Shown piece by piece: positions 41,932 through 44,548 of a stretch of 64,000 nucleotides of DNA. This DNA comes from Escherichia phage ECO111 5-P: the sequence record OR844765; one strand, written 5' to 3'. Position 1 is the first letter of the stretch. Each line of letters begins with the position of its first letter. The notes below the pieces were generated by a model, which worked only from the letters and a program-made list of their open reading frames with translations, was not told the DNA's origin and searched no databases. Both the position numbers and the translations under genes were made by a program.

Positions 41932-43752
41932 ATGATTAAAAATGAAATTAAGGTATTGTCAGATGTAGAACATATTAAGAAACGTAGTGGTATGTATATT
42001 GGTTCTTCGGCCAAAGAAGCACATGAGCGTTTTTTGTTTGGTAAATATCAACAAGTTGAATATGTTCCTGGCCTGGTTAAATTAATCGATGAGATTATTG
42101 ACAACTCGGTTGATGAAGCTATTCGTACATCATTTAAGTTTGCAAATAAAATTGATGTGCAAATTAAAAATAATCAAGTTTCGGTGGAAGATAACGGACG
42201 TGGTATTCCTCAAGGTTTAGTTACCGACCAAACAGGTGAACAAATTCCTGGTCCTGTAGCGGCCTGGACTATTCCAAAAGCCGGTGGTAACTTTGGTGAT
42301 GACTCTGAACGCAAGACTGGTGGTATGAACGGCGTCGGGAGTAGTTTAACTAATATCTTCTCTACGTTGTTTACAGGCATCACGTCAGATGGCGAAAATG
42401 AAATTACTGTTAACTGTTCAAACGGAATGGAAAACAAATCATGGTCTTCTAAGAAATCTAAAGGTAAAGGCACTAAAGTAATCTTCACTCCTGATTTCTC
42501 TTCATTTGAAGAGCATAATTTATCTCAAATTTATTTAGATATTACTTTAGACCGACTTCAAACATTGGCAGTCGTTTATCCTGATATCAAGTTCACATTT
42601 AATGGTAAAAAGGTTGATGGTAATTTTAAACGATTTGCTAAACAATTTGGTGAAGATAACATCATTCAAGAAAATGATAAAGTCTCTATAGCATTCACAA
42701 CATCGCCAGATGGCTTCCGTCATTTAACTTATGTGAATAACATCCATACTAAAAATGGTGGCCATCATGTTGAATGTGTAATGGATGATATCTGCGAACA
42801 TCTTTTGCCGGGTATTAAAAAGAAATATAAGGGTATTGAAGTCACTAAAGCTCGTGTTAAAGAATGCCTCACAATGTTGATGTTTATTAGAGACATGAGC
42901 AACATGCGTTTTGATTCTCAGACTAAAGAACGTTTAACGTCAACGTATGGTGATATTCGTAATCATATCCAATTAGATGCTAAGAAAATTGCTCAGGCAC
43001 TTCTTAAAAACGAAGCCTTGATTATGCCTATTGTTGAAGCAGCATTAGCTCGTAAATTGGCAGCAGAAAAGGCTGCAGAAACTAAAGCAGCTAAAAAGGC
43101 AACTAAAGCTAAGGTTCATAAGCATATTAAAGCTAACCAATGTAGTAAAGATGCAGATACGACATTGTTCTTAACAGAAGGTGATTCTGCAATTGGTTAT
43201 CTCATTGATGTTCGTGACCGTGAACTACACGGCGGATTCCCATTACGTGGTAAGGTGATGAATAGCTGGGGTATGTCATATGCTGATATGATGAAGAACA
43301 AAGAGCTCTTCGATATCTGTGCTATCACAGGTCTTATTCTTGGTGAAAAGGCAGAGAATACGAACTATCGTAATATTGCAATTATGACCGATGCCGATCA
43401 TGACGGTCTTGGAAGTATTTATCCGGCTTTGCTTGCTTTCTTTAGTAATTGGCCTGAATTGTTTGAACAAGGACGTATTCGCTTTGTTAAAACGCCTGTA
43501 ATTATTGCACAAATTGGCAAAACTCAAAAATGGTTTTATACTGTAGCTGAGTATGAAGAAGTTAAAGATACACTGCCTAAGCATAGTATTCGATACATCA
43601 AGGGATTGGGCTCACTTCAGCGAGATGAATATAAAGAAATGATTCAAAACCCTGTGTACGACGTAGTTAAACTTCCTGAAAATTGGAAAGAACTATTTGA
43701 AATGCTCATGGGTAACGACCCTGAACTCCGTAAAGATTGGATGCTAGGATAA
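41932..43752 (+). CDS. 39: DNA topoisomerase II large subunit, fused gene 39+60 equivalent (GyrB-like ATPase + TOPRIM)
   Basis: 606 aa continuous ORF; GHKL ATPase motifs (EIIDNSVDEA, DNGRGIP, GGMNGVG); TOPRIM LTEGDSA and DADHDG. Confidence 0.9.
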   Translation: MIKNEIKVLSDVEHIKKRSGMYIGSSAKEAHERFLFGKYQQVEYVPGLVKLIDEIIDNSVDEAIRTSFKFANKIDVQIKNNQVSVEDNGRGIPQGLVTDQTGEQIPGPVAAWTIPKAGGNFGDDSERKTGGMNGVGSSLTNIFSTLFTGITSDGENEITVNCSNGMENKSWSSKKSKGKGTKVIFTPDFSSFEEHNLSQIYLDITLDRLQTLAVVYPDIKFTFNGKKVDGNFKRFAKQFGEDNIIQENDKVSIAFTTSPDGFRHLTYVNNIHTKNGGHHVECVMDDICEHLLPGIKKKYKGIEVTKARVKECLTMLMFIRDMSNMRFDSQTKERLTSTYGDIRNHIQLDAKKIAQALLKNEALIMPIVEAALARKLAAEKAAETKAAKKATKAKVHKHIKANQCSKDADTTLFLTEGDSAIGYLIDVRDRELHGGFPLRGKVMNSWGMSYADMMKNKELFDICAITGLILGEKAENTNYRNIAIMTDADHDGLGSIYPALLAFFSNWPELFEQGRIRFVKTPVIIAQIGKTQKWFYTVAEYEEVKDTLPKHSIRYIKGLGSLQRDEYKEMIQNPVYDVVKLPENWKELFEMLMGNDPELRKDWMLG

Positions 43753-44117
43753 TGAATTATCGTAAAATTTATGATAAACTTATCGCTGCGGCTAAAAACC
43801 GCAGCATTATTCCTAATTATACTGAGACACATCATATATTGCCAAAATCTATGGGTGGGAGTAATGATAAATCAAATATAGTTAAAATGACCCCTAGAGA
43901 GCATTTTATCGCCCATTTATTGCTTTATAAAATTCATAAGAACCGTTCTATGCTTATGGCTATTAGAGCTTTTTACATGGGAGCTAGAAATTCTAGAGAT
44001 TATGATTGGCTTAAACAAGAATTCTCTAAAGAGCACTCTAGATTTATGAAAGAATGGATTGCTAAAAATGGCAACCCATTTAAAGGTAAAAACATACTAA
44101 AGCAACAAGAGAATTAA
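43752..44117 (+). CDS. HNH homing endonuclease, catalytic domain
   Basis: 121 aa from ATG 43752 (TAATG overlap with gene 39); HNH motif ETHHILPKSMGGSNDKSNIVKMTPREHFIAH. Confidence 0.7.
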   Translation: MNYRKIYDKLIAAAKNRSIIPNYTETHHILPKSMGGSNDKSNIVKMTPREHFIAHLLLYKIHKNRSMLMAIRAFYMGARNSRDYDWLKQEFSKEHSRFMKEWIAKNGNPFKGKNILKQQEN

Positions 44118-44548
44118 TGTCACATATTGCTTCACAACGTATAGGCGAATTAAATCCATTTTATGGTAAAACTCATACGCAAGAAGCAATAGATAAAATA
44201 ATACAGGCCAACAAGTTATCTTGGGAGAATGGGCGAAAAGCACCTGTAAAAACAAAAGAACACCAGGATAAAATAACTAAATCAAGAATGGAAACATTTA
44301 AAACAAAAGGATTTAAACCATACACTCCTAGGTCGGAAGAAACTAAAGCTAAGACTAGAGAGTTGTATAAATCTAAATATGAAAGAAGGCCTATAAGAAT
44401 CACAAGTGTAAAAACAGGTGAAACTATTGATTTTAACTATCTTTATGAATTAAGGGAGTATTTAGATATAGGGTCTTCTAATATATTGAAAGCATTAAAT
44501 AATCCTAACAGAACCTGCAAAGGTTATAAAATGTGTTGGATGTCCTAA
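44117..44548 (+). CDS. NUMOD3-repeat DNA-binding protein (homing-endonuclease DNA-binding domain), separate frame
   Basis: 143 aa; NUMOD3-like repeats NPFYGKTHTQEAIDKI and HQDKITKSR; TAATG overlap, different frame from the HNH ORF. Confidence 0.6.
   Translation: MSHIASQRIGELNPFYGKTHTQEAIDKIIQANKLSWENGRKAPVKTKEHQDKITKSRMETFKTKGFKPYTPRSEETKAKTRELYKSKYERRPIRITSVKTGETIDFNYLYELREYLDIGSSNILKALNNPNRTCKGYKMCWMS

Follow-up and report, generated by a model that had tools for sequence, protein, structure and literature searches.

The window, the entire 64,000-nucleotide stretch of Escherichia phage ECO111 5-P DNA analysed here (OR844765), is from a Mosigvirus, an RB69-like T-even phage, and all features described below lie on its plus strand. 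Gene 39 (41932–43752), identified from the list of open reading frames (ORFs) and by Pfam, encodes the fused DNA topoisomerase II large subunit as a single uninterrupted ORF of 606 aa, with DNA_gyraseB and HATPase_c among the Pfam matches above threshold and TOPRIM_C below it. Two ORFs in different frames, joined by TAATG overlaps, follow just past the end of this intact gene, as had been claimed in a preliminary description of this DNA, and their coordinates were confirmed. ORF1 (43752–44117; 121 aa), the 5' fragment of an endonuclease gene according to the ORF list, alignment and phrog_655, begins with an ATG whose A is also the last base of the gene 39 stop codon, TAA (TAATG, 43750–43754). 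From 44093 to 44548, the endonuclease gene continues in the original frame with its 3' part, comprising the NUMOD3 repeats and the C-terminal domain; within this part, the ORF finder called ORF2 (44117–44548; 143 aa) from an internal Met codon (Met123) at 44117, in the −1 frame relative to ORF1, and the ORF1/ORF2 junction again reads TAATG (44115–44119). An intrinsic terminator hairpin (AAGCTCC TTCA GGAGCTT) with a T-rich tail lies at 44546–44575 and is followed by a 366-aa gene of unknown function (44591–45691; phrog_8302), which is labelled 'glycosyltransferase' in NRG-P0074.

The assignment of an HNH catalytic module to ORF1 and of NUMOD3 to ORF2, also made in that description, holds. ORF1 matched PHROG 655, 'homing endonuclease', with E=4.8e-48; its Pfam HNH score (19.2 bits) is slightly below the cut-off of 21.4, and the HNH catalytic motif is present as HH(27–28)...N38...N42...H51. 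Residues 1–113 of ORF1 are native, containing this HH..N..N..H motif and a helical region. ORF2 matched Pfam NUMOD3 with 23.2 bits, over the cut-off of 20.4, and phrog_1310 matches the final ~80 aa of the endonuclease. A search of solved structures gave no significant match, the best being the McrA HNH at E=0.22. The endonuclease identity is not a chance result, because 27 phage records contain annotated homing endonuclease genes that share 98–99% identity with the region. When the 265-aa protein was restored, the NUMOD3 score rose to 36.5 bits in two stretches, and phrog_655 spanned residues 1–205 without interruption (E=1e-56), showing that the frame break lies inside one family profile. The genome paper of phiC120 mentions its ORF117 in one line as a NUMOD3-containing homing endonuclease (PMC8022965), and our literature search on the element yielded nothing beyond that line.

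DNA alignment located the lesion precisely, since the sole indel relative to the intact relatives was the length of the A-run (A5, A6 or A7) after GGT. The relatives carry GGT AAAAAA CAT (A6), read as GGT AAA AAA CAT and translated as G K K H, whereas the window carries GGT AAAAA C (A5; 44088–44092) within the first NUMOD3 repeat (NPFKGKKHTKATREL), 23 nt ahead of the ORF1 stop. This run, at nucleotides 337–342 of the gene, is the only homopolymer of six or more in the endonuclease gene. Past residue 113, ORF1 contains eight missense residues (NILKQQEN) and then a premature TAA. The break had previously been sought at the TAATG junction, with resequencing across 44100–44125 suggested; it is instead the 1-nt deletion in the upstream A-run. 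Nor does the alignment resolve the ORFs into two independent families, each full-length and with nothing lost where they meet. Among the three options put forward earlier, namely a two-subunit endonuclease, a frameshift-inactivated remnant and a gene needing recoding, the remnant is borne out by the missing A and the continuous phrog_655 alignment; neither the two-subunit option nor recoding found support. Very probably, ORF1 and ORF2 are one 265-residue homing endonuclease gene broken by the loss of a single A from an A6 run. Because one A has been lost from such a run in an ordinary 265-residue gene, the locus would hold a selfish gene that was disabled recently, not an enzyme in two parts.

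The A-run was read directly in 18 related sequences, 17 of which were A6 and one, AV118, A7. The 17 A6 relatives have, at the same place, one uninterrupted 798-nt homing endonuclease gene encoding 265 aa, in which the HNH and NUMOD3 modules are joined; in the window copy, the A5 frameshift leaves them outside a common polypeptide. Because both modules are joined in these relatives, the window copy appears to be a disrupted allele of a Mob-type member of PHROG 655, non-functional as it stands. In total, 27 phage records matched with 95–100% coverage and 98–99% identity, and their match spans exceed the query by 1 nt (2 nt in AV118), which implies that the remaining full-length matches are likewise uninterrupted. 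Indeed, a single 798-nt CDS is annotated in F27, phiC120, p000v and others. A pattern scan of the A-run context found one further A6 copy each in IMG/VR (phiE142) and a JGI metagenome, and zero copies in GTDB genomes. In the intact gene, variable sites occurred in both halves, 15 being synonymous (of 156 sites) and 9 nonsynonymous (of 639); the resulting pN/pS of ~0.15 shows, as judged from the substitution pattern, purifying selection on the gene.

Frameshifted alleles were found on several haplotypes. Besides the window, five Logan contigs (two lineages, two projects and two other haplotypes) have A5, and AV118 has A7. Apart from the run, the frameshifted SRR9866670 is identical to the A6 alleles of F1 and fPS-90, SRR2095068x to that of CJY920, and AV118 to that of AV109, and the window allele is nearest to a20, BEU50 and NRG-P0074, at three substitutions. 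With an identical A6 twin for each of three frameshifted haplotypes and the window within three substitutions of A6 alleles, at least four independent changes of the A-run have occurred. Such recurrence fits a slipped-strand hot spot in a putatively dispensable gene. Among protein cluster members, the exact 121-aa product of the window was recorded on one 170,762-bp NCBI contig and a second 121-aa variant on 18 contigs. All four frameshift alleles are terminal branches without further decay, which also fits very recent events, artefacts of laboratory propagation or reversible switching.

It is rather improbable that the phage is truly A6 and that the deposited sequence lost one A in the homopolymer through a sequencing or assembly error. 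The lesion does consist of one homopolymer base, and errors of this type are the most frequent on several platforms; the allele is otherwise near-identical to intact ones, and the A7 of AV118 among A6 sister genomes could be an artefact of the same type. However, in a comparison with phage a20 (~97% identity over ~60 kb), a length difference was found in 4 of 257 homopolymer runs of at least 5 nt and, among 46 six-base runs, in that of the endonuclease, the other 45 being unchanged; homopolymers are thus not a general source of error in this assembly. Moreover, the window has no broken essential gene, A5 is shared by the five Logan contigs, which are independent and come from two projects and two other haplotypes, and the second 121-aa variant was found on as many as 18 contigs.

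We consider it quite unlikely that the A6 run is a contingency (on/off) switch that can be reversed, or a throttle giving a trace of full-length nuclease via rare slippage. The hint for it is that the four independent frameshift alleles are terminal and undecayed while the gene overall is under purifying selection; if true, such a device would allow a selfish endonuclease to be maintained in phage lineages despite its cost. Even less probable is that the full-length enzyme is still made from A5, by −1 ribosomal frameshifting at T AAA AAC or by slippage of RNA polymerase, with the run perhaps acting as a throttle or switch. The shift needed is indeed −1, the A-run holds Lys AAA codons, which are slip-prone in E. 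coli, and the frameshift alleles recur at one site with no secondary decay. On the other hand, the zero-frame GGT AAA AAC provides T AAA AAC without the first X of an X XXY YYZ heptamer, and a downstream RNA structure is absent, the 86 nt at 44085–44170 folding at −6.1 kcal/mol compared with a shuffle mean of −8.4 kcal/mol (z=+0.91; 168 of 200 shuffles at least as stable). The two-frame layout is also not kept in relatives, where the majority allele, A6, is in frame and A7 needs the opposite shift. Efficient transcriptional slippage needs roughly 9 nt, and runs of 5–7 A are far short of this length, arguing against recoding by RNA polymerase.

The weak GAG motif 5 nt 5' of the ORF2 ATG and the stop/start overlap mean that the ORF2 DNA-binding fragment could be translated, and, in a weaker variant of the switch or throttle reading, the 143-aa NUMOD3 fragment, translated by coupling, might be a sequence-specific DNA-binding protein. 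That both fragments are translated through TAATG coupling and reassemble into an active two-subunit endonuclease is, despite this overlap and motif and the retention of entire domains except for nine residues of NUMOD3 repeat 1, highly improbable, because every in-frame allele carries TAATG within the internal codons GAA TTA ATG, making it incidental and not a designed junction, the split AV118 (A7) allele has a 16-nt gap with no overlap, selection acted on a single 265-aa ORF, and the modules of I-HmuI-type enzymes are arrayed along DNA with the polypeptide chain as sole tether. As these modules are held together by the chain alone, we know of no interface that could reunite the fragments.

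Returning to the single broken gene, the element proved to be polymorphic for presence, 27 of the 187 matching records carrying it and the others matching its flanks only. Comparison with the endonuclease-less LF82-4 revealed an exact insertion (43754–44538), flanked by the gene 39 stop and the terminator hairpin, in which ~785 nt take the place of ~5 nt (TGATA); at the empty site, LF82-4 has ...GCTTGGTTAA TTGATA GATGTCCTAAGCTCC.... Intergenic DNA that was already in place supplies the endonuclease gene with its final three codons and its stop (GATGTCCTAA, 44539–44548). The hairpin is also found in the empty site and is annotated as a terminator in fPS-90; by this comparison, it is older than the insertion. 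The final two codons of gene 39 are CTA GGA here and CTT GGT in endonuclease-less relatives, a synonymous change that creates an AGGA Shine–Dalgarno-like motif (43746–43749), and in a cleavage-site comparison the carrier and non-carrier Mosigvirus alleles differed in these two codons only.

Copies in Tequatrovirus are accompanied by Mosigvirus-type gene 39 sequence for ~180–400 nt upstream and by the first ~48 nt of the Mosigvirus downstream gene, the one encoding 366 aa in the window. In these carriers, the left junctions lie within gene 39 at nt ~1415–1422 (five genomes), ~1445–1464 (FL12) and ~1640 (CJY920), from which the tract runs to the stop codon. The right junction falls at the same position in all Tequatrovirus match spans (L006 and L007 were read directly); 3' of the insert, these carriers keep the native gene 39 tail as a 32-nt duplicate. 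This mosaic pattern shows that the element, as reconstructed from the junctions, moved from Mosigvirus to Tequatrovirus, co-converting up to ~400 nt of the gene 39 3' end. A target shared with MobA was considered from the nearness of the left junction at nt ~1415–1422 to the MobA zone (nt 1399–1419) and was rejected as unsupported, in view of the FL12 and CJY920 junctions farther downstream and of the whole MobA that CJY920 retains upstream of its converted tract. For crossover, the region at nt ~1415–1422 simply offers the best conservation.

The single-base lesion, the intact relatives, the recurrence, the purifying selection and the past mobility with co-conversion of gene 39 shown above may be joined in the following course of events. 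In its normal state, the element is a free-standing HNH/NUMOD3 homing endonuclease gene for one 265-aa polypeptide, inserted exactly behind the gene 39 stop codon and ahead of the terminator. In this genome, one A was very probably lost from its only six-base homopolymer (A6 to A5), presumably by slipped-strand mispairing during replication (the Streisinger mechanism), resulting in eight missense codons followed by a stop and leaving the DNA-binding half in the −1 frame. The frameshift is probably tolerated because the endonuclease would be dispensable to the phage; with the catalytic module untethered from its DNA-binding module, the split products would have lost the capacity for site-specific cleavage and homing. 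ORF1 and ORF2 should be annotated together as a single disrupted homing endonuclease gene with a frameshift flag, not as two proteins. The locus provides a compact and clear illustration of the life cycle of homing endonucleases, in which an element crosses genera and then decays via A6 slippage, and slippage in the sole A6 run would be the fastest available mutation for the onset of decay. Specialists would find none of these findings surprising.

The link to MobA drawn in the preliminary description survives in part. The HNH module (aa 1–71) is 63% identical to HY01 MobA, 66% to an Acinetobacter phage MobA and 53–59% to the frameshifted T4 mobA remnant, whereas residues 72–265 (the NUMOD3 repeats and C-terminal domain) gave no significant alignment with MobA (269–279 aa), so that the remaining ~190 residues are unrelated. 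Both elements accompany the topoisomerase II large-subunit gene, and both occur in some genomes as decayed, frameshifted copies (bioRxiv 10.1101/2022.08.31.505936), MobA being intact in HY01 and a pseudogene in laboratory T4. The MobA cassette is inserted inside Topo2L (Toprim region) at nt 1399–1419, splitting the gene and giving CTE/NTE tails (bioRxiv 10.1101/2022.08.31.505936). In contrast, the window element lies after the stop codon of an unsplit gene 39 having no such tails, and the window reads ...ATGACCGATGCCGATCATGACGGTCTTGGA..., with no take-off stop, hairpin or 50-nt bypass, all of which are present in T4, HY01 and CJY920. Since CJY920 carries MobA and a window-type endonuclease side by side, both intact, the two are distinct elements. 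The T-even topoisomerase II large-subunit gene is targeted by two distinct HNH elements sharing the catalytic module and not the DNA-binding module; with both targeting one gene and both present in CJY920, they provide a convenient natural system for swapping and retargeting of HNH modules.

Overall architecture and family profile are shared with MobD and MobE, other free-standing HNH endonucleases of T4-like phages in PHROG 655 (phrog_655, E=1e-56), with 36% identity to MobD over aa 1–186. All of these are free-standing, intergenic, patchy among close relatives and spread with co-conversion of a neighbouring conserved gene, but the window element occupies a different genomic site, on the gene 39/rIIA.1 side. 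In having NUMOD3-type DNA-binding repeats behind its HNH catalytic module (Pfam), the window-type gene is like the I-HmuI-type intron endonucleases, from which it differs in not being intron-encoded and in having no significant solved-structure match; I-HmuI-type HNH/NUMOD3 enzymes are probably nickases. The lesion itself resembles the Streisinger frameshift hot spots, the A-runs of T-even phages known from rIIB and the lysozyme gene, in that one and the same run of six A's has gained or lost a single unit (±1) in independent events. Unlike those selected laboratory mutants, however, the changes described here are a natural polymorphism in a presumably dispensable selfish gene.

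The uninterrupted gene 39 (topoisomerase II large subunit, 606 aa; 41932–43752), in which Pfam DNA_gyraseB and HATPase_c scored above threshold and TOPRIM_C below it, is followed by two ORFs in different frames. The listed ORFs and the nucleotide sequence itself confirm the arrangement noticed in the preliminary description. The ATG of ORF1 (121 aa, HNH endonuclease fragment; 43752–44117) shares one base with the gene 39 stop codon (TAATG, 43750–43754), and a second TAATG (44115–44119) joins ORF1 to ORF2 (143 aa, NUMOD3; 44117–44548) in the -1 frame. ORF1 matched phrog_655 'homing endonuclease' (E=4.8e-48) and gave 19.2 bits with Pfam HNH (cut-off, 21.4), and ORF2 gave 23.2 bits with Pfam NUMOD3 (cut-off, 20.4). 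Escherichia phage vB_Eco_F27 is the closest match (99.2%) to the window, which comes from an RB69-like T-even phage of the genus Mosigvirus (Straboviridae).

Alignment to relatives revealed that a single base separates the two ORFs from one intact gene. In all, 27 phage records matched the region at 98–99% identity over ≥94% of its length, with the matched span exceeding the query by one base in each, except for AV118, where the excess is two bases. One 798-nt CDS of 265 aa, usually called 'homing endonuclease', is annotated in F27, phiC120, p000v, a20, NRG-P0074, AV109, AV111, SQ17, phi25-307, F1, fPS-90, FL12, and BYEP01. The sole indel lies in the A-run after GGT: relatives read GGT AAAAAA CAT ACT AAA GCA ACA AGA GAA TTA ATG TCA (G K K H T K A T R E L M S), whereas the window has GGT AAAAA C... 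at 44088–44092, one A fewer. The deletion falls within the first NUMOD3 repeat, NPFKGKKHTKATREL, and is followed by eight missense codons and a TAA overlapping the internal Met123 codon, which the ORF finder takes as the start of ORF2. The ORF1/ORF2 TAATG is incidental, because all in-frame alleles also contain it as GAA TTA ATG; in AV118, a split allele with seven A (A7), ORF1 ends earlier and a 16-nt gap replaces the overlap. Moreover, the phrog_655 alignment is unbroken over residues 1–205 of the rejoined protein (E=1e-56), in which NUMOD3 reaches 36.5 bits in two stretches. Of the readings first proposed, the frameshift-inactivated gene is therefore the one that stands, with one profile spanning both halves instead of two independent full-length families, and with the break at 44088–44092 rather than at the ORF junction.

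The same run has changed length elsewhere. The exact 121-aa product of the window occurs in NCBI on one contig (170,762 bp), and 18 Logan contigs carry another 121-aa variant, whose frameshift tail is the same but whose backbone differs; among the contigs that encode the exact 143-aa ORF2 are five Logan assemblies (SRR20950677/679/687/688 and SRR9866670, two projects), each with a five-A run (A5). Among 21 jointly aligned alleles, 24 sites carried substitutions and the run took three lengths. Three further copies were checked later, and the direct readings together gave A6 in 17 related sequences, A5 in the window and in two lineages of Logan contigs (five contigs), and A7 in AV118. Three frameshifted haplotypes have otherwise identical A6 twins (SRR9866670 and F1/fPS-90; SRR2095068x and CJY920; AV118 and AV109), and the window allele differs from its nearest neighbors, a20/BEU50/NRG-P0074, at three sites, L43I being found in the window alone. 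These twins and the three-site gap imply that the run, the gene's sole homopolymer of six or more bases, has undergone four or more independent ±1 changes. All frameshift alleles lie on terminal branches and lack secondary decay, suggesting that they are recent. Among the alleles, 15 synonymous (of ~156) and 9 nonsynonymous (of ~639) sites vary, in both halves of the gene; this pN/pS of ~0.15 indicates that selection has kept the 265-aa ORF as one protein.

An assembly error in the run would also give the window its A5, and we consider this origin quite unlikely. When the entire window was aligned to the ~97% identical phage a20, only 4 of 257 runs of ≥5 bases differed in length, the endonuclease A-run was the one of 46 six-base runs to do so, and no broken conserved genes were found elsewhere in the window. 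Given these reliable homopolymers, the A5 on Logan contigs, and the recurrence, we favor a real mutation on the sequence evidence. Relative to a20, the window also has a 19-nt tandem duplication, AAGGAACTAGAATGAAATT, at 5871–5889 and a T5/T6 run difference at 6002, among small ORFs (5658–5885, 5901–6047, and 5995–6171); both may represent additional frame changes in small hypothetical genes. The suggestion of a two-subunit enzyme, in which the two products reassociate, is unsupported: a weak GAG motif 5 nt upstream of ORF2 and the stop/start overlap mean that the ORF2 fragment may be translated, but selection acted on the fused ORF and there is no sign of the halves reassociating. Recoding, likewise suggested, would indeed need a -1 shift to yield the full-length product from A5 but is unsupported, as the zero-frame heptamer is T AAA AAC and not X XXY YYZ, the 86 nt downstream fold less stably than most shuffles (z=+0.91), the commonest allele is in frame, A7 would require the opposite shift, and runs of 5–7 A fall short of the length that efficient transcriptional slippage needs.

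The frameshifted gene belongs to an element of patchy distribution, absent from 160 of the 187 records matching the flanks. The empty site of LF82-4 (Mosigvirus) reads ...GAT TGG ATG CTT GGT TAA TTGATA GATGTCCTAAGCTCCTTCGGGAGCTT..., and the occupied site ...CTA GGA TAA TGAATT..., about 785 nt, ...TGTGTTG GATGTCCTAA, after which the terminator hairpin is shared with the empty site; the last gene 39 codons differ by two synonymous changes, which create an AGGA motif directly upstream of the endonuclease ATG. The window terminator, with its TTCA loop (44557) and an A after the stem (44565), differs at both positions from F27, three other compared relatives (L006, L007, and L010), and the empty site, in which the tetraloop is TTCG and the base after the stem is C. 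Tequatrovirus carriers comprise F1, fPS-90, FL12, BYEP01, CJY920, and Logan contigs. Compared over its full length, gene 39 of the carriers L006 and BYEP01 is Tequatrovirus-like for the first ~1400 nt (94–100% to IME537) and Mosigvirus sequence from there to the stop codon (98–100% to the window). Beyond the endonuclease, the chimeras continue with the terminator and then 48 nt from the start of a Mosigvirus 366-aa gene. The right junction of L006 and L007 lies at a CCTGAC microhomology, beyond which 32 nt of the native gene 39 tail persist as a second copy, and in the remaining Tequatrovirus carriers the window match ends within ~10 nt of that junction; left junctions in gene 39 lie at nt ~1415–1422 (five genomes), ~1445–1464 (FL12), and ~1640 (CJY920). 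Varied left and common right junctions are expected after a single illegitimate entry with repeated rounds of homologous homing or recombination thereafter, and they are the usual mark of an active free-standing homing endonuclease gene. The 366-aa gene (44591–45691), a full-length match to phrog_8302 (function not assigned) named 'glycosyltransferase' in NRG-P0074, is missing from the Tequatrovirus context, into which the endonuclease gene brought no more than the initial 48 nt. Relative to a20, the window also lacks ~0.8 kb at 10962–11030 and ~0.7 kb at 19680–19706, which coincide with the annotated homing endonuclease genes a20_158 and a20_170; endonuclease gene content therefore varies among near-identical Mosigviruses. 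In AV118 (OR352948.1; L005:411–818), a 135-aa ORF with a faint NUMOD3 match directly upstream of gene 39 (607-aa product), overlapping its start, may represent a further endonuclease remnant, flanking the topoisomerase gene on its opposite side.

The gene is thus a biochemically uncharacterized, already annotated member of a known family at the first step of decay; its phiC120 copy is mentioned in PMC8022965. Four side findings are of modest use to the study of homing endonuclease evolution: the transfer between genera, with its co-conversion tracts mapped; the catalytic module shared with MobA; the presence of both elements in CJY920; and the repeated slippage at the A-run.

The link to MobA drawn in the preliminary description holds for the catalytic module only. 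Intact MobA proteins (HY01, Acinetobacter phage) are 63–66% identical over residues 1–71, and the ~190 remaining residues did not align to them; the mobA region of T4, a remnant with multiple frameshifts, has an N-terminus 53–59% identical to the window-type protein. MobA elements occur only inside the topoisomerase gene (nt 1399–1419) and bring CTE/NTE tails and a 50-nt bypass, and MobA in laboratory T4 is a pseudogene (Manning and Atkins, bioRxiv 10.1101/2022.08.31.505936); the window element has neither that position, the tails, nor the bypass. In four endonuclease-carrying Tequatroviruses (L006, L007, BYEP01, and F1), a synonymous codon patch, ACTGACGCAGATCACGAC, over IMTDADHD (L006:2270–2300; gene 39 nt ~1458–1475) is unlike the Mosigvirus and Tequatrovirus parental sequences and matches GACGCAGATCAC in the homologous region of the T4/HY01 MobA element, where the MobA nick site lies; the patch could stem from earlier conversion by a MobA element or from selection at the MobA target. 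CJY920 (PQ349265.1 50500–58400; 1212–4871 therein) has intact copies of both elements one behind the other: gene 39 (517 aa, including the CTE), then MobA (272 aa; 2743–3561), then gene 60, whose bypass cassette is the same as that of T4, and last the NUMOD3/HNH endonuclease (265 aa; 4074–4871). Because CJY920 has both, MobA and the window-type endonuclease are separate elements. The element is best described as a Mob-type HNH endonuclease that combines a MobA-like catalytic module with a different, NUMOD3-based DNA-binding module and takes up a second site on the topoisomerase gene, distinct from that of MobA.
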